Program-made: the position numbers and the translations under genes
Shown here: positions 1 through 39,417 of the stretch, piece by piece
Numbering within the stretch: position 1 is the stretch's first letter
How the letters are laid out: the number at the start of each line of letters is the position of its first letter
Notes under the pieces: model-generated
What the model was told of the DNA's origin: nothing
The model's database searches: none
The model's input: the letters and a program-made list of their open reading frames with translations, nothing else
Assembly (NCBI GenBank): GCA_963772375.1
Contig: CAVYXG010000001.1
Span: 787,809 to 851,808 of the forward strand
Length of the DNA: 64,000 bases
Source: an uncultured Actinomycetes bacterium
GTDB taxonomy: Bacteria; Actinomycetota; UBA4738; JACQTL01
Direction: 5' to 3'

Positions 1-259
1 AAGTCCTAGCGCCAGACGTGGCCTTCGCCGTGACATGAGCGGCTCGGCTCTCCCGTTGTGAATCTGACGAGGCTGCAGGATTCACTTGATGTTGCGGCCC
101 GCGCTCTTGCTCCCCCCAGAGGGGCTCTTGACGCCACGCTTCGACCGGACGCCTCTCGACGCCGGCCGGTGGCCTGCTACCAGGCGCTCCGGCGCTTACC
201 TGGGCGGGACTTGCACCCGCTGGCTCGGTCCAGCTTTCAGGACGCGACACGGCGGGATT

Positions 260-3405: not shown

Positions 3406-5916
3406 TCAGATCTCGTGCGTGATCAGTATGCCGCGCCCGCCGCAGGTCGGACACGTCTCGCTGAACGAGTCCAGCAGGCCCCCCGACACACGCTTGCGCG
3501 TGATCTCGAGGATCCCGAGCGGGCTGATGTCGAACACCTGCGAGCGCGTCTTGTCCTTGGCCATCGCGGTGTTGATCGTGTCGATGACCTCGCGCTTGTT
3601 CTTCTCGAGCAGCATGTCGATGAAGTCGATCAGGATCATGCCGCCGATGTCCCGCAGGCGGAGCTGCCGGGCGATCTCCTCGGCGGCCTCGAGGTTGGTC
3701 TTCGTGACCGTCTCCTCGAGGTTCGCCTTGCCGACGTGCTTGCCGGTGTTCACGTCGATGACGGTCATGGCCTCGGTCTTGTCGATGACGAGGTACCCGC
3801 CGGACGGGAGCCACACCTTGCGCTCGAGCGCCTTGTGGATCTGCTCGATCAGGTGGTACTGCTCGAACAGCGGCAGCCGGCCGTCGTGCATCCGGACCTT
3901 GTCGACGAGCTCCGGGGCCACGCCCCGCAGGTACTCGCGGATCGTGGCGAGCACCGGCTCGGAGTCCGTGACGATCTCGCGGAACTCCTCGTCGTTGAAC
4001 AGATCGCGGACCACGCGGACCGTGAGTTCGGGCTCCTCGTACAGCAGCGCCGGAGCCTTGGCCTTCTTCGAGCGCTTCGAGATCTGCTCCCACTCCGCGG
4101 CGAGCCGGCGGAGGTCGTCGGTGAGGTCCTGCTCGGTGGCGCCCTCGGCGGCGGTGCGGACGATCACGCCGTGCTGCTCCGGGTGGACCTTCTTGATGAT
4201 CGCGCGGAGGCGACGGCGTTCGTTGTCGGGCAGCCGCCGGCTGATGCCGAACACGTCGGAGTTCGGGACCATCACCACGTAGCGGCCCGGGAGGCTGATC
4301 TCCTGGGTGAGGCGGGGGCCCTTGCCGCCGATCGGGTCCTTCGTCACCTGCACCAGCGCGGCCTGGCCCGCCTTGATGACCTGCTCGATGCGCTGCTGAC
4401 GGCCGCCGATGTCCTCGTCGTAGCTCACCTCGCCGGCGTACAGCACGGCGTTGCGGCCCTTGCCGATGTCGATGAACGCGGCCTCCATGCCGGGGAGCAC
4501 GTTCTGCACGCGGCCGAGGTAGATGTTGCCGACCATCGACTTCGCGCCGACGCGGGTGATGTAGTGCTCGACCAGCTGGCGGTCCTCGACGACCGCGATC
4601 TGGTCGCGCTCGCCGTGCTCGGTGATGAGCATGAGCTTGTCGGTGCCGCGGGGAACGACCGGCATGGGCTCGCGACGGCGCATGGTGGCGCGGGACCGCC
4701 GGGTGCGCGTCGGGCCGCCGTCGTCGCCGGCCTCGGTGCTCTTCGCGGCCCGAGACCGCGACCTGGTCCTGGTCGGGGGAGCGGCCTCCGCCCTGCCGCC
4801 CGCCTTGGCCTTGGCCTCGGTCTTGGTCTTGCCACCCGCCTTGGCCTCGGTCTTGGCTCCTGTCTTGGCCTCGGCCTTGGCACCTGTCTTGGTGTCGCCC
4901 TTGGCTGCGGTCCTCGTTCCGGTCCGGGCGCTCTGTCGCTTGGCATGCTGCGGCTGCTTCGCCCCGGAACCGCCGGCGGTGGCGCCGCCGTCCCCGGCGT
5001 CATCGGCGGCCGCGGCCTCGCCGCCCTCCACCGATTGGGATCCGCTCCGGCGGCGGCGGCGGCGGCGGCGTTTGGCCGAGGCCGACAGGGGAGCGTCGTC
5101 GCCGGACGACGCCGGCCGGTCCAATTCGGCTTCCCCTTCCCCAGAGGGCTCCGACCCCGCCTCGGCAGGTGCGTCCGCGGCTGCCGAGGGCTCCCGTCGG
5201 GCGCGGGGCGGGCGAGGCATGGACGTATGCTCCTCGGCGGCCTCGCCGGACGCGGCCGCCTCGCCGGCGTTCGGTGGGGCCGGGGCCTCGTCGGAAGCGC
5301 CGGCCCCCGCGCCGCCCGACCGGCTCCGCCCGCGGCCGCGGCTGCCGCGATGGCGGCGCCTCGGTCCCGTGGCCGTCCCCGTCGACTGGTCGCCCGAGGC
5401 CGCTTCGGACCCGGCGCCCGTGGCCTCGGCGGACTCCGGCGTCCCGCCGCCCGACGACGTCTCACCGTCACCGACCGTGGCCTGCGATCCGGCGTCAGGG
5501 CTCGCGGGACGCGGCGTGGGACGCCTGGCCTGGCCACTCCGGCCGGATCCGCTTCGCGCGGGGGCGCCGTCGCCGTCCGCGGTCACGTCGGCCGTCGACT
5601 CCGGGGCGGCGCCGTCGGACGCCTCGTCGCCGTTCGCGGCGGCTCCGGTGGACGCGCCCGAACCGGACCGCCCCCTGCCACGGCCGCCGCGCCGGCGCCG
5701 GCGCCTCGCGGCGGTGGTCGTGCCGGCCCCGGCGCCGTCGGCGGGCGCGTTCGACCCCGGGCCGTCCTTCGCCGAGCCGGAGTCGGAGCCGGAGCTCGTG
5801 TCGGAACCCGTCGCGGATCCCACGGAGTCGGACCGGGGCTCGGATGCGGCGGAATCGGGTCCGGGCGCGTCGGCGCCGGCCCGCTCGGTGACGGCCCCCT
5901 GGGGCTCGTCGTTCAT
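3406..5916 (-). CDS. rne: ribonuclease E/G family endoribonuclease (RNase E)
   Basis: 836-aa ORF. The C-terminal ~430 aa carry an S1 domain (MLITEHGERDQIAVVEDRQLVEHY...) and an RNase E/G catalytic core (DVNTGKHVGK, DFIDM). The N-terminal ~400 aa are an Arg/Ser/Gly-rich disordered arm with poly-R tracts. Confidence 0.85.
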   Translation of the reverse strand: MNDEPQGAVTERAGADAPGPDSAASEPRSDSVGSATGSDTSSGSDSGSAKDGPGSNAPADGAGAGTTTAARRRRRRGGRGRGRSGSGASTGAAANGDEASDGAAPESTADVTADGDGAPARSGSGRSGQARRPTPRPASPDAGSQATVGDGETSSGGGTPESAEATGAGSEAASGDQSTGTATGPRRRHRGSRGRGRSRSGGAGAGASDEAPAPPNAGEAAASGEAAEEHTSMPRPPRARREPSAAADAPAEAGSEPSGEGEAELDRPASSGDDAPLSASAKRRRRRRRRSGSQSVEGGEAAAADDAGDGGATAGGSGAKQPQHAKRQSARTGTRTAAKGDTKTGAKAEAKTGAKTEAKAGGKTKTEAKAKAGGRAEAAPPTRTRSRSRAAKSTEAGDDGGPTRTRRSRATMRRREPMPVVPRGTDKLMLITEHGERDQIAVVEDRQLVEHYITRVGAKSMVGNIYLGRVQNVLPGMEAAFIDIGKGRNAVLYAGEVSYDEDIGGRQQRIEQVIKAGQAALVQVTKDPIGGKGPRLTQEISLPGRYVVMVPNSDVFGISRRLPDNERRRLRAIIKKVHPEQHGVIVRTAAEGATEQDLTDDLRRLAAEWEQISKRSKKAKAPALLYEEPELTVRVVRDLFNDEEFREIVTDSEPVLATIREYLRGVAPELVDKVRMHDGRLPLFEQYHLIEQIHKALERKVWLPSGGYLVIDKTEAMTVIDVNTGKHVGKANLEETVTKTNLEAAEEIARQLRLRDIGGMILIDFIDMLLEKNKREVIDTINTAMAKDKTRSQVFDISPLGILEITRKRVSGGLLDSFSETCPTCGGRGILITHEI

Positions 5917-6425
5917 GCGGTTCTCCCTTCCCTCGTCGGGAACCTCGGAGCGGAAGGGTGCGCGGGCGCTTCGATCCGGTCACCCGGAGCGCGCGCTGCG
6001 CGCGGGAACGTCTTCAGCACACCGTGCGCGGTCTCCCGGCGCCGGTCGGTACGCCCCTGGAGGGTCCAGGCGACGCCGTCGGCGGCCAGTGGCCGCAGCG
6101 CGGCCGAGGTTCTCCTCTCGCCTGGCTTCGGGCCTCGCTCTGGGGGAGCGCCGGCCCGATCAGCCGGCGAGCACGTCTTCGGTGGCGGCGGGACCGGCTC
6201 GGCACGCCGGGTCGCCGTCGGCCTCCCGCGTCGCACGCGACGCGGACAGCTACGGACAAGGATAGCAATGCGGGGGGCCACCTGCTTCGAAAGCGCCGAA
6301 CAATCGGATCACTGGAATCGGGCAATGGTCGATGCCCATTTCGGGGTCGGACTTCCGTCGTATCAAGAGGAGCGTCCGGACCGCCGATCCCACAGACGAC
6401 ATGCGCATGAATTGGTCGAACGGGC
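5917..6425 (-). promoter_or_regulatory. long 5' leader / promoter region upstream of rne, divergent from the REC-HK gene
   Basis: About 500 nt with no credible ORF between the rne start and the divergent gene. By analogy with the autoregulated E. coli rne 5'UTR. Confidence 0.3.
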
Positions 6426-6554
6426 GTGGCTGACGCGCACCTCCGTTCCTGGCTCGGCCCCGTCACGCCCGGCGGCGACGCCCGCCGGCCGGGGACGCTG
6501 TTCTCCGCGCCCGTCGCCGGCCCGGTGCCCGGCGAGCCACGGGCGCTCCGCGTG

Positions 6555-7670
6555 ATGGTCGTCGACGACAACGACGGATTCCGGGAGTCGCTGGTGGCCC
6601 TGCTGGCAGCCGGCGGACACCAGATCGCCGGCGAGGCCACCAACGGAAGGGACGCCCTCGAGCTCCTCGAGCGGATCGACCCCGACGTAGTGCTGATGGA
6701 CATCCGGATGCCGGTCATGGACGGCATCGAGGCCACCCGCCGGATGAAGGTCGCCCGACCGTCGCTCGGCGTGGTCGCGCTCACCGCGCAGGAGGACGAC
6801 ACGATCGTCCGCGAGATGCTGGTCGCCGGCGCCACGGGCTACGTGCTGAAGGACTCCGACGGCGACGTGATCCTGAACGCGATCTCGGAGGCGGCCGGCG
6901 GCGGCGCCGTGCTCTCCCCCACGGTCGCCCCGCGCGTGATCGACCAGCTGACCGAGGCCCTCGAACGGGAGCGCCACCGTGCCCGCGAGCTCGAGGAGGC
7001 CCACGTGGCCCTGGTGGAACGTGTGAGCCGCCGCCACGAGCTGGTCGCGCGGCTGGGCCACGAGCTCCGGACCCCGATCACCGTCATCCTCGGCGTCGCC
7101 CGGACGCTCGCCGGCGGCGGCCTCGAGACCCGCCAGCGCGACGAGCTGCTCGAACGCCTGGTCGGCCGGGCCACCGCGCTGTCCCACCTGGTGGAGCGGT
7201 TCGAATCGGCGCTCGACACGGGGTCGGAGGACCGCATCGACATCGCGGCGACGGCCCGCGAGCTGGCGACCGCGTGGCCCCGGGTGCGGGTGACGTCGGA
7301 GCCGGGCCTCCCCGCGGTCCTGGCCAACCGGGTCCTGGTCCAGCGGATCCTCGAGGAGCTGGTCGACAACGCGTGCAAGTTCTCCGACCCCGAGAGCCCG
7401 GTCGAGGTCTCGGTGACGCTCGGGGCCGGGGCGCTCCAGGTCCGGATCACCGACGCCGGGGAGGGCATCCGGCCCGAGGACCAGGACCGTGTGTTCGAAC
7501 CGCTGGAACAGGCCGAGGCCCTCGACGCGCGCATCCACCAGGGCGCCGGCGTCGGCCTGTCGCTCGGGCGCGCCGCGGCGCGGGCCATGGACGGCGACCT
7601 GGTGCTGGAGCGATCCGGGCCGAGCGGGTCGACGTTCCTGTGGACGGTGGCGCTGCCGCCGATGCGGTAG
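6555..7670 (+). CDS. hybrid two-component protein: N-terminal receiver (REC) domain fused to HisKA + HATPase_c
   Basis: VMVVDDNDGFRESL...VVLMDIRMPVMDG is a REC domain with its Asp. It is followed by a coiled coil, an H-box LGHELRTPITVILG and an ATPase domain (ELVDNACKFS, GAGVGLSLGRAAA). No transmembrane or sensor domain. Start at ATG 6555 (or GTG 6552). Confidence 0.8.
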   Translation: MVVDDNDGFRESLVALLAAGGHQIAGEATNGRDALELLERIDPDVVLMDIRMPVMDGIEATRRMKVARPSLGVVALTAQEDDTIVREMLVAGATGYVLKDSDGDVILNAISEAAGGGAVLSPTVAPRVIDQLTEALERERHRARELEEAHVALVERVSRRHELVARLGHELRTPITVILGVARTLAGGGLETRQRDELLERLVGRATALSHLVERFESALDTGSEDRIDIAATARELATAWPRVRVTSEPGLPAVLANRVLVQRILEELVDNACKFSDPESPVEVSVTLGAGALQVRITDAGEGIRPEDQDRVFEPLEQAEALDARIHQGAGVGLSLGRAAARAMDGDLVLERSGPSGSTFLWTVALPPMR

Positions 7671-31332: not shown

Positions 31333-31565
31333 GGGCTCCGGGTTCTGGGGTCGGCGGAACTGGGTTGAGGCCGCGGCCGGCTACCGGGGCCGGCGCGGCG
31401 CGGCTACGCCGGCGCGTACGGGGAACGAGCGGTCCAGGCGGCGCATGGTCGGGCCATGATATCGAGCCCCGGAGAGGGCCCGCCGTGGCCCCAGCCCGTC
31501 CTCGCCGCTCGACCCGTGGACCGCCGGCGTGTAGGGTCGATCTGCCCGGGAGAGGACGATATCCG

Positions 31566-32495
31566 ATGCGCCGTTTCCTCGTGGTGACGTTCGTCGCGGC
31601 AATCCCGATCCTGCTCGCCGGGCCGGCCCGCGCCGCGCAGTCCCCCGGCCCCCGGGGCAACGTCGTCGTGCTCGACGGCCGGACGGTCATCGCCTCGGAC
31701 GAGATCGTCAACAGCGTGGTCGTGTTCCATGGCCGAACGATCGTGGACGGCTCCGCCCGGGGCAGTGTCGTCGTGTTCGACGGCGCCACCACGATCGGCG
31801 GGGACGTGCACGGGAGCGTGTTCGTGTTCCGGGGACAGGTCGAGGTCACGCCGGGAGCGCACATCGGCGGCGACCTCGTCACGACCGAGGCGCCGACCGT
31901 CGCCAAGGGCGCGACGATCGACGGCCGCATCCGGCACGTTTCGAACATCAACTTCACGGGGTACTCGTGGGCCTTCCACTTCCTCGTGTGGCTGGCCTAC
32001 TCGGTTTCCGTGCTGATCCTGGGGCTGCTGATGGTGGCGCTCCTCCCGGGGCCCATGGACTCCGCCGCGAACGCCGCCCGGACCATGGGCGCCACCGTCG
32101 GGTGGGGCCTGGTGATGCTGATCGGGCTGCCCCTCGCCGCGGCACTCGTGATGCTGACCCTGGTCGGGATCCCGCTGGGCCTGGCCGTGCTGCTGGCGCT
32201 GTGGTTGCTCTTCACCCTCGGGTACACGGTGGGCGAATATGCCCTCGGGCGGCTGCTCATCAAGCCGCCGGGCCGCCGGATGAAGGCGTTCTTCGCCGGG
32301 TGGGGCATCGCGCGCGCCGTGGCCCTCGTCCCGATCCTGGCCGGGCTCGCGTGGACCGTGCTCGCGCTCGCCGGCATGGGCGCGGTCACGGTCGCCGTGT
32401 GGCGGTCCCGGCGCGCGCTCCGGAGCGCAGAGCGGGGATCGCCGGACCCCGCGGTCCCGTTGGTGCCCGCGCCGCCACCGCCGGCCGGCGCCTGA
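31566..32495 (+). CDS. membrane protein with signal peptide, bactofilin-like beta-helical repeat region and C-terminal TM helices
   Basis: MRRFLVVTFVAAIPILLAGPARA signal. Repeats GRTIVDGSARGSVVVFDGATTIGGDVHGSVFVFRGQVEV. Three or more hydrophobic helices follow. Confidence 0.5.
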   Translation: MRRFLVVTFVAAIPILLAGPARAAQSPGPRGNVVVLDGRTVIASDEIVNSVVVFHGRTIVDGSARGSVVVFDGATTIGGDVHGSVFVFRGQVEVTPGAHIGGDLVTTEAPTVAKGATIDGRIRHVSNINFTGYSWAFHFLVWLAYSVSVLILGLLMVALLPGPMDSAANAARTMGATVGWGLVMLIGLPLAAALVMLTLVGIPLGLAVLLALWLLFTLGYTVGEYALGRLLIKPPGRRMKAFFAGWGIARAVALVPILAGLAWTVLALAGMGAVTVAVWRSRRALRSAERGSPDPAVPLVPAPPPPAGA

Positions 32496-32557: not shown

Positions 32558-34459
32558 ATGGTCGAACTGATCGGGATCCTGATCGTCGTCCTGGCCGTGA
32601 TCGTCGTCCGCCGCCTGCTCGGCATCCGTCGCGGGCGGTGGATCACCACCCTCGTCGCCGTGCTCATCGGCGAGCTCGGCGCCGGTCTCGTCATCAAGGC
32701 CGTCTACGGGAGCCTCTCCGGCGACCGGCGGGCGGGCGTGGCCCTCCTCGCGTGGGCGCTGGTGGTGCTGTTCGCGATGATCGTGGTCGTCCTGGTCGAG
32801 GTGCTGTCCCGGGGCCAGGTCCGCCGCCGGCGCCGCATCCCGCACCCGGTCCAGGGGCTCCGCCGCCTGTACCGACGCACCCGCCGGTACGCCCAGGTCG
32901 CACGGATCGTGATGCGCAGGCGCCTGTACGGCGCGGCCGGCGACCCGGCCGCGGGTCCCCGGCGGCTCCGGGCGGCGTTGGAGGATGCGGGCGGCCTGTT
33001 CGTCAAGCTGGGACAGGCCCTCGCCGACCAGCCGCAACTGGTCGGCCCGGCCGTGGCGGCGGAGCTCGCCGGGCTGCAGGACGAGGCCGTGCCGGCGGAT
33101 CTCGACGCCGCCCGGGCCGTGATCACGGAGGAGCTCGGCCCGTGGGACGAGGTGTTCGCCGAGATGTCGTCCACGGCGCTGGGCGCGGCCTCGATCGCGC
33201 AGACCTACCTGGCACGACTCCACGACGGGCGGGAGGTCGTGGTGAAGGTCCAGCGTCCCGGGGTGGCCGACGCGGTCCAGTGCGACCTCGACATCCTGCG
33301 CCGCCTCGTCGACCGGCTGGACCGCCGCACCACGTGGGCCCCGTCGATGGGCCTCAAGGAGCTGGTCGCGGGGTTCGACGAACGGACCCGCGAGGAGCTC
33401 GACTTCCGGATCGAGGCCGCGAACGCGATCGCCGCGCAGCGCTCCCTCGACCCCAGAGACCCCGTTCGGGTCCCCCGGATCATCGACACGTTCACCACCT
33501 CGCGGGTGATGGTCGAGGAACGGGCCGAGGGTCGCCCGGTGGGATCGCCGGGCATCTTCGAGGGATGGACGCCGGAGCGGCGGGGGGCGCTCGCCGACGG
33601 GTTCCTGACGTTCACCATGCGCCGCATGCTGGCCGGCGAGCCGTTCCACGCGGACCTCCACCCGGGCAACGTGTTCCTGCGGCCGGACGGCCTCCTCGAG
33701 CTCATCGACTTCGGTTCCGTCGGCACCCTCGACCCGTACGAGCGCTCCGGCCTCGTCGACATGCTCATCGGGGTCCAGCGCGAGGATCCCACGCTGCTGC
33801 GCCAGGGGCTGTTCCGCATCGGAACGCCGACCCGCCGGATCGACGAGGACGCGCTCGACCGGGAGCTCGCCCGCCTGCTGTCGTCCGGCAGGCAGCAGGG
33901 TGGGGTGGTCAGCGGACAGCTCTTCGACCAGGTGCTGCTCGTGCTGCGGGACTTCGGGATCCTGCTCCCGAGGTCGACGGCGACGCTGTTCCGCGCGCTG
34001 GTCACCCTGCTCGGAACCCTTCGCGTGATCGCCCCCGGCTACGACATCACGGCAGCCGCCGGCCGAGTCGGGGCCGACCTCTCGAGCGAGGACGGGGCGC
34101 CGGCGAACCTGTCCGACCTGGTGTCGAAGACCGCTCTTAATAACGCGCTGGTCCTGCGCCGGCTGCCGCAGCAGGTCGACGCGCTCGCCCGCAGTCTGCT
34201 CCACGGCGACCTCCGGACGCGGGTGAGCCTGCTCTCCGAGCCCGAGGACGTCCGCGTGGCCAGGGGAATGGTGAACCGGCTGGTCATGGGCATCATCGCC
34301 TCCGCGCTGGCCCTGGCCGCGGCGATCATGCTGTCGGCAGGTTCGGCTCCCATCCTCGGCGCGTTCCGCGTCGTCAATCTCATCGGTGCCGTGCTGCTGT
34401 TCTTCTCGGTGCTCCTGCTGCTGCGGCTGGTGGTGCAGATCCTCCGGGACCGCGAATGA
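32558..34459 (+). CDS. ABC1/UbiB-family atypical protein kinase with N- and C-terminal TM helices
   Basis: ABC1 motifs LGAASIAQTY, VVVKVQRPG, FHADLHPGNVF and IDFG. RBS GGGAGGAGG upstream of ATG 32558. Confidence 0.8.
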   Translation: MVELIGILIVVLAVIVVRRLLGIRRGRWITTLVAVLIGELGAGLVIKAVYGSLSGDRRAGVALLAWALVVLFAMIVVVLVEVLSRGQVRRRRRIPHPVQGLRRLYRRTRRYAQVARIVMRRRLYGAAGDPAAGPRRLRAALEDAGGLFVKLGQALADQPQLVGPAVAAELAGLQDEAVPADLDAARAVITEELGPWDEVFAEMSSTALGAASIAQTYLARLHDGREVVVKVQRPGVADAVQCDLDILRRLVDRLDRRTTWAPSMGLKELVAGFDERTREELDFRIEAANAIAAQRSLDPRDPVRVPRIIDTFTTSRVMVEERAEGRPVGSPGIFEGWTPERRGALADGFLTFTMRRMLAGEPFHADLHPGNVFLRPDGLLELIDFGSVGTLDPYERSGLVDMLIGVQREDPTLLRQGLFRIGTPTRRIDEDALDRELARLLSSGRQQGGVVSGQLFDQVLLVLRDFGILLPRSTATLFRALVTLLGTLRVIAPGYDITAAAGRVGADLSSEDGAPANLSDLVSKTALNNALVLRRLPQQVDALARSLLHGDLRTRVSLLSEPEDVRVARGMVNRLVMGIIASALALAAAIMLSAGSAPILGAFRVVNLIGAVLLFFSVLLLLRLVVQILRDRE

Positions 34460-34480: not shown

Positions 34481-35044
34481 TCAGCCGGGGCAGCGCACTC
34501 CCGCTCCGCACAGGGTGAATCCCTGACGCTGCAGGAGCTTCACCCCGAGAGCCCGCGGGAAGAACTTGATCGCCCCGCTCGCCTCGAGGGCCTGTGTGAA
34601 GGTGGCACCCGGCTGGAACGAGAAGTGGTACGCGATGCACCCGCCGGGGAACGTGTAGAAGCGGTCTGCCGTGTAGTGCGGCGGGAGCGCCTCGGGCCGC
34701 TCGTACCGGGCGGTGCCGGCCTCGTTCGGGTCGACCGGGACCCGGACCGCGCCCCGCGTGTCGCAGGACCGGGCAAGGGTCACCGTCACGGCGCGCAATC
34801 CCGCCCGGTCCGAGTCCAGCCAGAACCGTGACCCACTCGATTCGATCTGTTCCCCTCCGAACGTCCATCCGGCCGGGAACTCGGTGATGCACGGGACGAA
34901 CGTCGCGGAGGGCACCGACTGCGCCATCAGGATCAGGACGCTGCTCTGGTTGCAGGTCGGGGCGTTCGGCGGCCCGGATGACAGGTCCACGCGACACGCA
35001 GTGAGCCCCACCGTCAACATGGCCGCCGCGACGAGCCGTCTCAC
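34481..35044 (-). CDS. hypothetical lipoprotein
   Basis: The GTG start overlaps the stop of the upstream gene (GTGA). Lipobox LTVGLTAC. Four Cys residues, no recognised domain. Confidence 0.45.
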   Translation of the reverse strand: MRRLVAAAMLTVGLTACRVDLSSGPPNAPTCNQSSVLILMAQSVPSATFVPCITEFPAGWTFGGEQIESSGSRFWLDSDRAGLRAVTVTLARSCDTRGAVRVPVDPNEAGTARYERPEALPPHYTADRFYTFPGGCIAYHFSFQPGATFTQALEASGAIKFFPRALGVKLLQRQGFTLCGAGVRCPG

Positions 35045-36771
35045 AGGGCCCCCGACTGGAGGTTCGCGAGGAGCAGGCCCCAGAGGATCAGCGCCCCGAA
35101 CACGACTCCGACGGTCAGCGCCATCCGCTGGAAGCTCCACCGCTGGATCGCGATCGGCTGGCGGGGCGGGGCGAGCTCCCGGTATCGCCGGAGGATGTCG
35201 TTCCCCTCCTTCCGCTGGCGACGCATCATGGAGCGCGACTGGCTCGGGATGGTGACGCTGCGGGTGGCGGCGAACGCCTCCCCGAGCTCATCCGGCGTGA
35301 AGATCTCGATCGCGCGGGCGTACACCAGGTCGGGGTCGGTGCGAAGGCCCAGCACGATCATCATGTTCGCGAGGTCGACGGCCTGCCGCCAGGGCGAGGG
35401 GCGGAGCTCTCCGAACGCCAGGTCGATCAGCACGACCCGGCCGTTCTGCACCATGATGTTCGCCGGCTTCACGTCGCGGTGCGCGACGCCCGCGTCCCAC
35501 ATCCGACGGACGGTGCGCAGGGCGTCGTCCACGATCGCCTCGTCGACCTCGGCGTCGGTGAACTCGACCGACCCCTCGAGGAACTCGGTGACCAGGAGAT
35601 ACTCGGCGTTCGGCGTGATCTCGACGAACCCGTAGGAGCGGGCCCCGGGGAGCCCGGCGTCGTGCACCACCCGGAGCACGTAGTCCTCGTACTGGACCAG
35701 CCGGCGAACCGATGCGTAGGCCTTCTCGTCCTCGAGCGACCCGTACAGGATGGTCCGCCCGAGCTTGTACCAGCGGTCGGCCCGGAGGTGGGTCTTCGCG
35801 TAGAGCTTCCCGAAGATTACCTGGTCGGGGTCACCGGCCACCGTGATCCGCATCGGCGTCGAGCCCCCCGACCCGCGCAGCCCGAACGGCTTGACGTCCA
35901 CGACGTCGAGACCCAGCTGCTCGGACAGCGCCTGGTGGATCGCGGCGCCCCGCGCCCCCCCGAGGTCGAGGTGCGCGGCACGGCCCTTCCGGAATGAGAC
36001 GGGGAACACGGAGTTCGGGAGGAACGTGCGGTAGGCGAGCAGCGGCAGCGCCACCCCCAGGACCACCGCGACCAGATCGTCGAACGGATGGTCGACCGCG
36101 AGGTACCACTTGGAGGCGACCAACAGCGCGATCAGCGCCCACCCCACCCACTTCCCCACCCGCCTCGGCTTCCCGGCCGGAAGCAGCGTGTACAGGACGC
36201 CGAGCAGCGTGATCGCGGCCGCCGCGACCGTGGCCGACGGGAACGAGAACTCGTGCCAGCTCCCGATGATCCGCACCCCGAGCGGCCGGGCGCGGGGCAC
36301 CGTCTGCTGGACGAGGGCGACGAGCCACGTGACGACGAGCACGGTGGAGACGAACACGAACAGATGCCGCCACCGCTTGAACAGGACGAGGGCCACGATC
36401 ACGCCCCACCGAGCGACCCGGTTGGGCCATTCGGCCCCGATCCCCGACAGGAATCTCGCGACGGACGTCAGCCATCCGGTGCGGATCCCCGACAGCCAGA
36501 TCAGGAACCTGTTCTCGCCATGGTCGAACCAGTCCCCGATCGGGACGGTGAACAGCAGCACCACGAATACGATCAGGGCCAGGATGGCGACGGTCCAGAG
36601 CCTCCCGCTCAGCCCGTACTCGCGGGGAAGCGGCGGCGGCTTTCCCGAGGGCCGGCGGCGGCGGCTCGTTCGCCGCAGTCCGGGGACCGCGACCGGGTCC
36701 CGCCACCGCAGGTGGTCGCCGGCCTCGCCCGACTCGTCGGCCGCCTGGGTGCCCGCGTCGACCTCCATCTC
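35041..36771 (-). CDS. membrane protein: PAP2-like transmembrane domain (degenerate motif 2) fused to C-terminal Ser/Thr-kinase-like domain
   Basis: The N-terminal 6-TM region carries PAP2 motif 1 (PRARP) and motif 3 SKWYLAVDHPFDD, but motif 2 is SFPSAT (Gly/His lost). The C-terminal half has ePK-like motifs: FGLRGSGGS, HRDVKPANIMV and IDLAFG. Start taken at MEVDAG, overlapping the upstream stop. Confidence 0.65.
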   Translation of the reverse strand, partial: EMEVDAGTQAADESGEAGDHLRWRDPVAVPGLRRTSRRRRPSGKPPPLPREYGLSGRLWTVAILALIVFVVLLFTVPIGDWFDHGENRFLIWLSGIRTGWLTSVARFLSGIGAEWPNRVARWGVIVALVLFKRWRHLFVFVSTVLVVTWLVALVQQTVPRARPLGVRIIGSWHEFSFPSATVAAAAITLLGVLYTLLPAGKPRRVGKWVGWALIALLVASKWYLAVDHPFDDLVAVVLGVALPLLAYRTFLPNSVFPVSFRKGRAAHLDLGGARGAAIHQALSEQLGLDVVDVKPFGLRGSGGSTPMRITVAGDPDQVIFGKLYAKTHLRADRWYKLGRTILYGSLEDEKAYASVRRLVQYEDYVLRVVHDAGLPGARSYGFVEITPNAEYLLVTEFLEGSVEFTDAEVDEAIVDDALRTVRRMWDAGVAHRDVKPANIMVQNGRVVLIDLAFGELRPSPWRQAVDLANMMIVLGLRTDPDLVYARAIEIFTPDELGEAFAATRSVTIPSQSRSMMRRQRKEGNDILRRYRELAPPRQPIAIQRWSFQRMALTVGVVFGALILWGLLLANLQSGAL

Positions 36772-37693
36772 AACCCATCCCTCGGGACGCAAGCCACCCG
36801 CTCGCCACGGCCGCGGGCGACAGGCCGGCCAGCACGGCCCGGTCGAGCGCGATGAGCTCGGTGGTGGTGAGCGCGGCGCTCACGGCGTCGACGGTCCCGG
36901 CGAGGCGTTCCCCGTACCTGCCCAGCACCGACCGGCTGACGAACGGCGTCACGTTGTCGGAGGGCTCCAGCCCGCGGTCGTCGGTCAGCATCCGGAACCC
37001 GCGCTGGGCGACCTGCGGATCGGTCGTGAACACCAGGGCCACGTCGACGTCCCCGCCGGACAGCGCCGAGACCGTGAGCGGCCCGCTCGCGTCGAGGGGA
37101 ACGAAGCTCTTGAAGTGCAGCCCGTAGACGCTCGTGAGGCCCCGGAGGCAGAGGGGGCGTTCGGGGCACTCGGGCGGACCGCCCAGGACGAGCTTCGACG
37201 CGACCGGCGCCAGGTCGGAGATGGTCCGGAGCCCGTACCGCTCCGCGATCGCCGCCGTCACGGCGAACGCGTTCGCGTTCTGGCCGGGGGCGCTCCGGAG
37301 CGCGGCCGCAGGCGTGCCGGCGAGCGCCCGAACGAGCGAGGCGTGCGTCGCCGCGGGATCGCCCGCGGCGTTCGTCGCCCTGGTCAGGAAGTCGAGCGCC
37401 GACCCCTGGTACTCGGGCACCATCTGGACCAGCCCCCGCATGAGGGCCGGATCGACAAGCTCCCGCGGGCCGAGTCCCAGCTGGAGCTGCACGGGGATGC
37501 CGTTGGCCAGGAGCGCCTGCCCGTAGACCTCGGCCAGCACCTCGGACTCGGGAAAGTCGAACGACCCCACGACCACCGTGCCGGGCGTGACGGAGGGCGG
37601 CGCCGGCCCACCGCCGCTCGTGCACGAGACGAAGCAGAGCGTCGCGACCACGGCCGCGACCCCCCGGGCACGTGTCGGGACCCGCCCCCCCAT
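36770..37693 (-). CDS. glycine betaine/choline-type substrate-binding lipoprotein (OpuAC/ProX-like), orphan
   Basis: Lipobox TLCFVSCTS. The segment VVVGSFDFPESEVLAEVYGQALLANGIPV is typical of the OpuAC fold. No permease or ATPase gene adjacent. Confidence 0.7.
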   Translation of the reverse strand: MGGRVPTRARGVAAVVATLCFVSCTSGGGPAPPSVTPGTVVVGSFDFPESEVLAEVYGQALLANGIPVQLQLGLGPRELVDPALMRGLVQMVPEYQGSALDFLTRATNAAGDPAATHASLVRALAGTPAAALRSAPGQNANAFAVTAAIAERYGLRTISDLAPVASKLVLGGPPECPERPLCLRGLTSVYGLHFKSFVPLDASGPLTVSALSGGDVDVALVFTTDPQVAQRGFRMLTDDRGLEPSDNVTPFVSRSVLGRYGERLAGTVDAVSAALTTTELIALDRAVLAGLSPAAVASGWLASRGMG

Positions 37694-37777
37694 AGCTCGA
37701 CCCTACGCCGACTCAGCCACCCTGGCCAACGGGTACGATGCGCCTCGCCCGTCCGAGCCAGGGGGAGCTGCGCGTCC

Positions 37778-38482
37778 GTGGCACGCAAGGAGCACGAACA
37801 CCCCCTGCTCGAGAACACCCCCAAGGACTTCGTGCTCGTGGCCTGTCTGGGCGGCCTCGCGATCGCGATTGCCGTCCTGGTGGCGAACCCATCGACGCTG
37901 CGGCAGGTTCAGCGCGCCGACGATGCGTTCCTCCGGTTCGTGCTCCGTCATCGGACAGGGTGGATGACGGTGATCGGGAGGGTGTTCAACGTCCTGGGAT
38001 CGTCGGTGGTCACGCTGCCGGTTCGGATCCTCGCGGCCGCGTACCTGGCCTTCCGGCGCCGATGGTGGCACTTCGCGGCGTTCGTCTCCGCGATCGCGCT
38101 GTCCGAGATCGTCTCCAACGTCATGAAGACCGCCTACGACCGGCAGCGCCCGCCCGGTTCGCTCGTGCACACCACGGCGTCGTCGTTCCCGTCGGGCCAC
38201 GCGGTCGCGACGTCGGTGACGGCCGTCGCGCTGGTGATCGCGTTCGTCCCGACCGGCCGCCAGCGGGCGATCTGGGGAACGGTCGCGGCGGTGTTCTCCT
38301 TCCTGATGGCGATCTCGCGGGCGTACCTGGCCGCGCACTGGCTGTCGGACGCCATCGAGGGAACGCTGATCGGCGTCACCTGCGCGCTGCTGCCGGCGAT
38401 CGCGATCGAGGCGATCCGCGAACGCCGGCAACGGAGGGCGGACCTCGCGGCGCCGTCGGTCGAGCCCTTGCCGTCCGGCTGA
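37778..38482 (+). CDS. PAP2 family phosphatase (phosphatidic acid / undecaprenyl-pyrophosphate phosphatase-like)
   Basis: All three PAP2 motifs are intact: [13 protein letters not shown] and [15 protein letters not shown] start. 6 TM helices. Confidence 0.7.
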   Translation: MARKEHEHPLLENTPKDFVLVACLGGLAIAIAVLVANPSTLRQVQRADDAFLRFVLRHRTGWMTVIGRVFNVLGSSVVTLPVRILAAAYLAFRRRWWHFAAFVSAIALSEIVSNVMKTAYDRQRPPGSLVHTTASSFPSGHAVATSVTAVALVIAFVPTGRQRAIWGTVAAVFSFLMAISRAYLAAHWLSDAIEGTLIGVTCALLPAIAIEAIRERRQRRADLAAPSVEPLPSG

Positions 38483-39417
38483 CCCGTCAGCGTTGGTCGA
38501 TGTTCATGGTCGACCAGCGTCGAGCCGAGCAGGACACCGTTGGCGAAATAGGTGTCGGTCGGGCCGGAGGGCAGCAGGTCGAAGGTGAACCCGCCGGAGT
38601 AGTGGACCCGCCGGGTGGACTCGACCGTCGAGCCTTCGAATGCCACCCCGGACCGGAGTTCGCCCACGGGAGTGCCGTCCGGTGTCGGGTGACCCGGCGA
38701 GACGAGCACGGTCCGGCCGTCGGCCAGCACCAGGCGGACCATCTCGTGGGTCGGGGGAACGGGGGTGCTGCCCACGCCTGTCACGGTGGCCCGGACGCGA
38801 CGGCCGTCGCGGTCGGTCGACCAGACCGTCATCCCAACGCGTACATCCTGCACCAGGACGAACCCGCCGGGCGTCGCGATCCGCGTGTTCCTCGCGAGGC
38901 AGACCGGACACGGAACGAACAGGTTCCGCTTGACGAAGTCGACCCGCACCGTCCCGCTCGGATCCACCGTCCCGGAGGCCCAGGTCACGGGTCCCGGTGA
39001 GGAGAGGGGACGAATCGTGAGATCGAAGCGGTACGCCACGCCGTCGCGTCCGGAGAAGCTCCACGTGATGGAGCCAGCGGCCGTCAGGATTCGTTCGCGG
39101 TCGTCGTCGCTCAGATCGGTTCCGACGAGATGCAGGTGGTGGAGGATCGCCGCAAGGTCCGCCGGACGCGATCGCGCGAGCTTCTCGATCTCGGTGACCA
39201 GCTCCTCATGGGTGGGGATCCGAACGACCGGCGGCCCGCACAGGTACCGCATGCCGCCGATCGCCTTCACCACGAGGAGCTTCAGCTCGGGGATCGGCAG
39301 CCTCCGGCCGGACGGGGACGGCGACGCGGAGGAACCCGGGGTCCCGGCACCCCCACCGCACGCGACCAGCATCGCGACAGACAGGAGTGCAATGACTGCG
39401 ACGCGGACGCGCGGCAT
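38134..39417 (-). CDS. lipoprotein with C-terminal Hint (bacterial intein-like, BIL) domain; 3' end uncertain
   Basis: Lipobox MLVACGG. Hint domain [33 protein letters not shown]...[26 protein letters not shown]...[17 protein letters not shown]. The frame stays open for ~350 nt of low-complexity sequence that overlaps the convergent PAP2 gene. The real end is probably near 38480. Confidence 0.45.

Follow-up and report, generated by a model that had tools for sequence, protein, structure and literature searches.

A conserved actinobacterial gene module that may link extracytoplasmic sensing to a membrane-embedded kinase

What does an osmoprotectant-type substrate-binding lipoprotein do when its gene lies next to that of a membrane-bound kinase-like protein and no ABC importer is encoded nearby? 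The question is raised by a 64,000-nucleotide stretch of contig CAVYXG010000001.1 (the window, meaning this whole stretch), which comes from a high-GC (~70%) actinobacterium and carries the locus between valS-folC and clpX-clpP-tig. Three minus-strand genes follow each other there in a tight head-to-tail series. They encode an OpuAC-family substrate-binding protein (SBP), a lipoprotein of 307 amino acids (aa) (36770-37693; Pfam OpuAC, 6.8e-40); a 575-aa fusion protein (35041-36768) with an N-terminal tail, a six-helix PAP2-like domain, a kinase domain and a C-terminal transmembrane (TM) helix; and a small Cys-rich lipoprotein of 187 aa from an unannotated family, here called SML (34481-35044). 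We tentatively read the set as an actinobacterial envelope-sensing kinase module that combines an extracytoplasmic sensor with a kinase, and put the probability of this reading at roughly one half.

The reading starts from gene linkage. The window's proteins were used to search the six-frame open reading frames (ORFs) of 83 loci from other species (L004, a broken assembly, was omitted); counts out of 42 refer to loci with at least 5 kb of flanking sequence on both sides. The initial annotation had left co-occurrence of the three genes in relatives as the point on which its proposal could fall, and the genes do keep company. SML lies directly 3' of the fusion gene on the same strand in 72 of 76 loci, shares one stop-to-stop ORF with it in 21 of the 76, and is present within 5 kb in 41/42. 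The binding-protein gene lies directly upstream of the fusion gene in 45 of 66 loci (33 co-directional, 12 divergent) and within 5 kb in 30/42. Seven of the 42 well-flanked loci retain fusion and SML without the SBP gene or either of two frequent neighbors described below, a flippase-like gene and an intact PAP2 gene. The invariant core is thus fusion plus SML, and the binding protein is a frequent accessory. Because the genomic surroundings vary between lineages, the linkage is not inherited synteny; found in dozens of species and in unrelated genomic contexts, the arrangement recurs far more often than chance would allow.

A scan of species-representative genomes gave at least 80 loci; of the 600 pattern-matching stretches that were examined there, at least 223 were confirmed as relatives, and the fusion family comprises at least 8000 protein clusters at 90% identity (all 8000 scored candidates were significant). 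Members come almost entirely from Actinomycetota metagenome bins. Carriers include Acidimicrobiia, Geodermatophilaceae, Frankiaceae, Streptosporangiaceae, Nitriliruptoraceae and others; Geodermatophilus saharensis DSM 45423 (L083), Trujillonella endophytica DSM 45413 (L054) and Blastococcus sp. KM273128 (L079) are cultured carriers. A second fusion copy or a kinase-only paralogue occurs a few kb downstream in L076, L013, L021, L011, L047, L029 and L063, and positions 9995-18510 of L076 apparently hold two complete SBP-fusion-SML sets in tandem.

The three coding sequences are packed as closely as the initial annotation described, but one of its two overlaps has to be redrawn. It had started the fusion gene at 36771, in an ATGA overlap with the binding-protein stop; the codon at 36771 is GAG, which cannot be the start. 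The junction reads TGAgATG, with a gap of one nucleotide (nt) between the TGA at 36772-36770 and the ATG at 36768, and a database protein of 575 aa (P0001) matches the start at 36768. The GTGA junction stands as described: the GTG start of SML overlaps the TGA of the fusion gene by 4 nt, and this stop/start overlap is seen again in independent lineages.

SML was correctly recognized from the start as a Cys-containing lipoprotein, having a lipobox (LTAC; MRRLVAAAMLTVGLTAC) and six invariant Cys residues. It has no Pfam or NCBIfam family. Its predicted fold is an extracytoplasmic alpha/beta sandwich that structurally resembles proteins of the Mog1/PsbP/LpqN type, and the family (1041 representatives after clustering at 50% identity) consists mostly of stand-alone proteins of ~190 aa. 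What ties SML to the kinase is a set of long fusion homologues of 730-760 aa that run past the C-terminal TM helix (35059-35124, from alignment A1; residues 553-575 in the model) into an SML-like domain, sharing with SML the blocks QSVPSA..PC, PAGW.FGG and FxGGC. In these proteins the order is kinase, TM helix, SML domain, and about a quarter of species have it as a single polypeptide. Since the long homologues align, SML is best taken as an ectodomain of the kinase protein that has here been split off as a lipoprotein, and its position 3' of the fusion gene in nearly all loci, in the same frame in 21, argues that fusion and SML would form one receptor. Both lipoproteins are predicted to be exported, having lipoboxes and invariant Cys pairs.

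The kinase domain (35137-35919) has a GSGGST loop, a catalytic Lys (in FGKLYA), HRDVKPAN and D-L-A-F-G. Among 200 family members, GSGGST is found in 174, the catalytic-Lys pattern [FL][FGA][AG]K[LI]YA in 145, HRD[VIL]KP[ASG]N in 199 and, by strict regular expression, ID-x-AF[GA] in 158; the full set of Hanks catalytic residues is invariant in alignment A1. By these motifs the catalytic apparatus is complete and the domain is predicted to be competent. Assigning it to a class is harder. The window protein matches Kdo (1.9e-6) and Pkinase (2.7e-6) profiles and also APH, RIO1 and Bud32; the Pkinase match (PF00069) reaches 27.4 bits against a cutoff of 31.7 and spans only profile positions 86-144 of 263, the Kdo/WaaP match (PF06293) scores 27.9, above its gathering score of 21.3, and all kinase matches lie below NCBIfam cutoffs. 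In 46 relatives every Pkinase match is weak (best 3.3e-7), and those to Pkinase, RIO1, APH and Kdo are about equally so; we therefore regard the domain as an unclassified protein-kinase-like family. The initial label of Ser/Thr kinase is thus more specific than these matches allow, the domain being about equally distant from all four. Structural matches of the cytoplasmic domain were Rio1 (13.1), Bud32 (12.4), aminoglycoside and choline kinases (~11-12), PknB (10.8) and WaaP (10.4), and in Foldseek PRPK/Bud32 gave the best target-normalised TM-score. A sequence search of the PDB with the fusion protein returned only marginal matches, to the kinase catalytic loop. Between D-L-A-F-G and the invariant block that follows it, SPWRQAVDLANM, there are only about 10 residues, so that an activation segment with a P+1/APE region looks absent.

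The membrane domain (35986-36588) has a PgpB-type fold with degenerate motifs. Pfam PAP2 matches the window protein at 4e-4, under its cutoff, and matches 44 of 46 relatives; profile and six-helix fold together place the domain with PAP2. Of the catalytic motifs K-x6-RP, PSGH and SR-x5-H-x3-D none is present. At C1 the Lys is replaced by Gln and is not conserved in the family; at C2 PSGH has become PSAT, with no His at this position in any of the 169 members matched; at C3 SRx5Hx3D has become SKWYLAVDHPFD, in which the nucleophile His is replaced by Asp and an invariant His stands one residue on. Family members have Asp or Asn in place of the nucleophile, and in the alignment R-x-RP and H-P-x-D do not vary. 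Because the fold and the phosphate-contacting residues are conserved and the catalytic histidines are gone, the sequences suggest a pseudo-enzyme, which would bind a phosphorylated ligand without hydrolysing it; no phospho-histidine intermediate is expected, given the missing C2 His and the change of the C3 His to Asp or Asn. The proposed PAP2-like/kinase fusion is therefore borne out as two domains in one protein, with the proviso that the PAP2 match is sub-threshold in the window. Since the SML ectodomain follows the last TM helix, the kinase and the N-terminus would lie inside the cell and the loops with the PAP2 motifs would face out, as they do in PgpB.

The N-terminal tail in the cytoplasm has a conserved, nearly universal motif of its own, RRRRPSGKPPPLPRE (~36600-36660, by alignment), with the consensus RRRRP[S/T]G-x-PPPLP(R). 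A strict regular expression finds it in 64 of 84 locus ORFs, and it is visible in most of the others. The region is predicted to be disordered, with a predicted local distance difference test (pLDDT) score <50. In fusion homologues from L005 to L084 it likewise has the form of a basophilic target-like site followed by a polyproline stretch. By its sequence, the motif may be a basophilic Ser/Thr phospho-acceptor, and it could serve for autophosphorylation or docking.

The binding protein is a clear member of its family, scoring 137.7 bits with Pfam OpuAC (PF04069; cutoff 21.2) over residues 39-302 of 307. It has the lipobox FVSC, whose Cys24 is kept in orthologues, and a Cys176/Cys182 pair that is invariant in them. 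Its closest solved relatives in the PDB are A. fulgidus ProX (1SW1), EgtUC and OpuBC/OpuCC. With the NCBIfam model for the glycine-betaine SBP OsmF (NF049931), it scores 81.2 bits where 400 are needed. The ProX pocket was mapped onto 47 orthologues that adjoin a fusion gene. In ProX we take the aromatic box for the quaternary ammonium head group, from the residue roles in 1SW1, to be Y63, Y111, Y190 and Y214. Y63 is retained (Y95, 47/47), Y111 is replaced by Asn (N141, 47/47), Y190 corresponds to position 222 (39 Phe, 8 Glu; F222 in the majority), and Y214 to an acidic residue in 47/47 (E/D246; D246 in the window protein), the register near Y214 being uncertain because alignment identity is low. 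Of the other ligand-pocket positions, K13 corresponds to F/Y45 (40 Phe, 7 Tyr; F45 in the window protein) and R149 is kept as R179 in 47/47. On this mapping the subfamily has a conserved pocket of its own that is not a betaine box. Betaine, choline and carnitine are therefore poor ligand guesses; the Arg and the acidic residue suggest a ligand that probably has an anionic as well as a cationic group. The initial description of the protein as betaine-type is thus right for the family but not for the pocket, where only part of the ProX betaine site is kept.

That the binding protein is unlikely to feed a transporter, as had been proposed from the lack of ABC permease and ATPase genes nearby, agrees with what was found around it. 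Across all frames, the 64-kb window lacks an ORF that combines LSGGQ with a Walker A motif, and between 27 and 44 kb the coding space is taken up by identifiable non-transporter genes. An ORF with ABC-ATPase motifs occurs within 5 kb in 1/42 loci, and no OpuA-type permease or ATPase gene was present in any related locus inspected, so that no operon pairing an orthologue with such genes came to light there; the single ABC_tran gene near an inspected locus (L087) comes after a TetR gene and seems to have no connection with the module. Even at 53-55% identity, homologues adjoin a fusion gene rather than OpuA-type permease/ATPase genes, in operons of the order (PPK2)-LPG_synthase_TM-SBP-fusion-SML-PAP2, often with 4-nt overlaps. 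Given co-conservation with the fusion, the missing local importer and a linkage kept at such divergence, a dedicated, non-transport partnership with the membrane kinase is the most economical reading. A database protein (P0111) annotated with both OpuAC and Kdo was considered as a one-protein fusion of binding protein and kinase and was not used; it is probably an artefact of a frameshift-rich long-read assembly, since its contig, L004, has clpP, clpX, valS and the SBP gene in fragments.

Divergent from the binding-protein gene, and starting 84 bp from its start, is an intact PAP2 lipid-phosphate phosphatase gene (37778-38482, plus strand, start codon inferred; Pfam PAP2, 8.3e-19) with all of K-x6-RP, PSGH and SR-x5-H-x3-D. 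The short intergenic region (37694-37777) presumably holds a shared promoter region; it gave no sigma-70-like match and no Rfam match, and Rfam, promoter and terminator scans of the locus yielded nothing useful. On the other side, an ABC1/UbiB-family atypical kinase with TM helices (~32558-34459, plus strand, start inferred; Pfam ABC1, 5.1e-52) is convergent with SML, its end lying 21 bp from it. Both neighbors had been noted initially, and both are what they were taken for. Within 5 kb of the fusion gene, LPG_synthase_TM (an MprF-flippase-like membrane protein) is encoded in 26/42 loci and an intact PAP2 in 17/42; neighboring PAP2 genes keep all three motifs in 30 of 32 loci. ABC1 is a loose associate only (4/42), although in L011, L018, L027, L029, L050 and L063 it comes immediately downstream and on the same strand. 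The flippase-like protein, the intact PAP2 and, at times, ABC1 and polyphosphate kinase 2 (PPK2) point to an envelope-lipid theme.

Several smaller features of these surroundings were recorded. A PPK2 gene stands beside the module in several unrelated lineages (L002, 5220-6026; L085 and L086, 5044-5877), and PPK2-like ORFs form a cluster in 6 loci. In L087 the LPG_synthase_TM gene upstream of the SBP gene (5082-7004) encodes 640 aa, as against ~350 aa elsewhere, with an extra region. Beside the ABC1 gene of the window, the product of a plus-strand gene (31560-32495) is a membrane protein containing a repeat region of DUF8173/bactofilin-like type; L001 has an orthologue immediately after the module, and L082 has a related ORF upstream. 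A minus-strand lipoprotein ORF with a weak Hint_2 match (38134-39417) is homologous to a 266-aa orthologue in L001 up to residue 301, and its last ~125 codons are antisense to the 3' end of the convergent PAP2 gene, probably a stop-less over-extension. 'HINT' matches opposite PAP2 genes in many loci were discarded as antisense translations of PAP2 from such an over-extended Hint-like ORF. At the edge of the window (87-222, minus strand) Rfam recognizes group II intron domains D1-D4 (RF02003; 94 bits, 1.2e-19). When all ORFs up to 6 kb from the fusion gene were clustered, by a crude method that fell into one giant cluster of GC-rich spurious ORFs, no further partner emerged, and apart from the genes already named none of the clusters reached more than 12 loci; in the 21 loci without an adjoining binding protein, upstream ORFs ranked by GC content at third codon positions were heterogeneous.

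How might such a module work? Its core would be a two-part receptor made of the fusion protein and the extracytoplasmic SML domain. The six-helix PgpB-type domain, having lost its catalytic histidines, would bind a phosphorylated ligand on the outside of the membrane; the cytoplasmic RIO/Bud32-like kinase would be joined to it, and the final TM helix would continue into, or be translationally coupled to, the disulfide-rich LpqN/PsbP-like ectodomain. In about two thirds of species the OpuAC-type lipoprotein would act as a dedicated accessory that feeds no transporter: its remodelled, conserved pocket would bind a small ligand, and the liganded protein would dock on the outer face of the receptor, as GlnH does on GlnX. 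The output would be ATP-dependent phosphorylation in the cytoplasm, perhaps first of the protein's own RRRRP[S/T]G tail, and the process controlled is probably tied to the flippase-like protein and the active PAP2, that is, to homeostasis of outer-leaflet lipids or lipid carriers. The analysis establishes the order of the genes and its conservation, the natural gene fusion, the folds, the states of the motifs and the absence of an ABC system nearby; we infer the physical contacts, ligand, signalling direction and substrates of this scheme. A more specific version would make the dead PgpB-like domain a pseudo-enzyme receptor for an outer-leaflet lipid (pyro)phosphate, such as a polyprenyl-(pyro)phosphate carrier or phosphatidylglycerophosphate, wired directly to the RIO/Bud32-like kinase, with the LpqN-like ectodomain and the OpuAC-type lipoprotein supplying a second, soluble or head-group input; such a receptor kinase, reporting on the lipid state of the envelope and controlling the adjacent flippase-like protein and active PAP2, would represent a class not recognized before in bacteria. 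So detailed a version is unlikely to hold in all its parts.

A number of observations weigh against the envelope-sensing reading. The binding protein does not adjoin the fusion gene in 21 of 66 loci, about one third, and so cannot be the sole input. The map of its pocket comes from pairwise alignment at low identity. The invariant His beside C3 could mean altered rather than lost chemistry in the PAP2-like domain. The kinase has no long activation loop, which makes its action on a protein substrate uncertain, and by fold and profile it is no nearer to Hanks-type kinases than to RIO/Bud32 or to the small-molecule kinases APH, ChoK and WaaP. No FHA, PP2C or transcription-factor gene is conserved near the module in the loci inspected, and literature searches on PAP2-kinase fusions and OpuAC-linked kinases brought up no study of this family; the 'PAP2-PIK-like module' described in a 2026 preprint proved to be unrelated, involving a soluble Bacteroidota kinase. 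The flippase-like protein, PAP2, ABC1 and PPK2, finally, fit a metabolic lipid pathway equally well.

Such a pathway, modifying membrane lipids or glycolipids and sensing nothing, is the alternative to be taken most seriously, although we consider it doubtful. On the cytoplasmic face, the kinase, held at the membrane by the PAP2-like domain, would act like WaaP/Kdo kinase or a choline/aminoglycoside-type kinase and phosphorylate a lipid, a polyprenol or a lipid-linked sugar; LPG_synthase_TM would flip the product, the intact PAP2 would dephosphorylate it or transfer its phosphate outside, and in the wall zone the two lipoproteins would deal with the head group or the lipid. The Kdo/WaaP match above its gathering score agrees with this, as does the name given to relatives by NCBI ('lipopolysaccharide kinase InaA family'), and so do the frequency of LPG_synthase_TM and intact PAP2 genes, often in one operon with 4-nt overlaps, the likeness of the SML fold to lipid-binding LpqN, and the ABC1/UbiB and PPK2 genes that sometimes adjoin. 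The near-universal HRD-x-K-P-x-N catalytic loop (199/200) speaks against it, however: to our knowledge its Lys is typical of Ser/Thr protein kinases and absent from the loops of WaaP, KdkA, APH and ChoK. Nor would an enzyme pathway explain why a whole PgpB fold is maintained without its catalytic histidines, or why fusion and SML persist in the seven loci that lack SBP, flippase-like gene and PAP2, and the order kinase-TM-ectodomain is the layout of a receptor kinase. Closer to the sensing reading, and overlapping it rather than excluding it, is the idea that the kinase domain is an ATPase or conformational switch, like RIO and Bud32, that gates or drives the PAP2-like domain or the flippase-like protein. 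The minimal C-lobe, the very short segment from D-x-A-F-G to the next conserved helix and the lack of a conserved substrate gene nearby are in keeping with it, but the conserved basophilic tail resembles a phospho-acceptor and no known flippase or PAP2 enzyme requires such an ATPase, so that we hold this the least probable of the alternatives. Scarcely more probable is that the binding protein is an ordinary component of an osmoprotectant ABC importer with permease and ATPase genes at another place in the genome, its linkage to the kinase being hitch-hiking or a minor second role. It is after all a clear OpuAC-family member, which all pipelines annotate as an osmoprotectant transport system substrate-binding protein; it keeps the equivalents of ProX Y63 and R149 (Y95 and R179); and orphan SBP genes that serve distant transporters exist (see also PMC8050422). 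Against this, its linkage to the fusion survives rearrangement into both orientations, distant lineages and divergence to 53% identity, no OpuA-type genes occur in any locus inspected, and replacements by Asn, Glu/Asp and Phe, described as invariant in the subfamily, affect two of the four positions of the aromatic box and the residue that corresponds to Lys13.

If the envelope-sensing reading is right, the module offers a second, structurally unrelated route to SBP-stimulated control of a kinase, and it bears on an open question, how the eukaryote-like kinases of bacteria are activated. It is widespread in soil and aquatic Actinomycetota, and a membrane enzyme fold (PAP2/PgpB) has apparently been turned non-catalytic in it, presumably for sensing. 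The analysis also puts right a systematic mis-annotation: 'osmoprotectant transport system substrate-binding protein' for the binding protein and, for relatives of the fusion, 'Bud32', 'lipopolysaccharide kinase InaA' and 'phosphatase PAP2' are misleading names. As cultured carriers exist among the Geodermatophilaceae, the module can be tested. The combination of a PAP2-like domain, a kinase, SML and an OpuAC-type SBP is unprecedented.

The binding protein shares fold and family with those of the OpuA, OpuC and ProU importers; unlike them, it is not accompanied by permease or ATPase genes, either in the window or in related loci, and its pocket is altered. An OpuAC-family protein that serves signalling rather than transport, and whose gene lies beside that of its signalling partner, is known from CosB-CosT of Halobacterium salinarum (PMC8050422). 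There the binding protein signals to a chemotaxis transducer and not to a kinase, and CosB binds betaine, choline and carnitine, whereas the present subfamily has replaced half of the aromatic box. The PAP2-like domain differs from phosphatases of the PgpB/LpxE/BcrC type in lacking the C2 His, in having Asp or Asn for the C3 His, in the unconserved C1 Lys and in the fused kinase. With RIO, Bud32/PRPK, WaaP/Kdo and APH/choline kinases the kinase domain shares a compact protein-kinase-like fold without a long activation loop; it differs from them in its Hanks-like HRD-x-K-P-x-N loop and in being membrane-embedded at both ends, and the module shows no link to the ribosome, KEOPS or lipopolysaccharide. 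PknH (PDB 4ESQ), with a kinase, a TM helix and an extracellular disulfide-bonded sensor domain, has the same kinase-TM-ectodomain order. Identity to PknH and to LpqN/Mtc28/LpqT is only 5-12%, however, with no Pfam membership on the side of the module; in the module, the ectodomain is in most cases a lipoprotein of its own, profiles do not place the kinase in the Hanks type, and the N-terminus bears an additional six-helix PAP2-like domain.

The closest parallel is GlnH-GlnX-PknG of Mycobacterium and Corynebacterium, according to a review the only characterised SBP-stimulated Ser/Thr kinase system (PMC8050422; see also PMC6069109 and PMC9769921). Both are actinobacterial operons in which an exported SBP lipoprotein without a transporter is encoded beside a polytopic membrane protein and a kinase, and the gene arrangement of such a system is what the 45 of 66 loci show, kept at 53-55% SBP identity. 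The proposed logic is also the same, occupancy by a ligand outside controlling phosphorylation inside. The parts are different. The SBP here is of the OpuAC family (PF04069), that of GlnH SBP_bac_3; the membrane partner has a PAP2/PgpB fold, whereas GlnX has four-helix-bundle domains; and the kinase is fused and RIO/Bud32-like, whereas PknG is soluble and Hanks-type, with TPR and rubredoxin domains. The module further adds an LpqN-like ectodomain, has no known substrate of the GarA/OdhI type, and in about one third of species dispenses with the binding protein. Judged by its sequences, with components that do not match in homology, the module is an analogue of GlnH-GlnX-PknG and not a member of that system.

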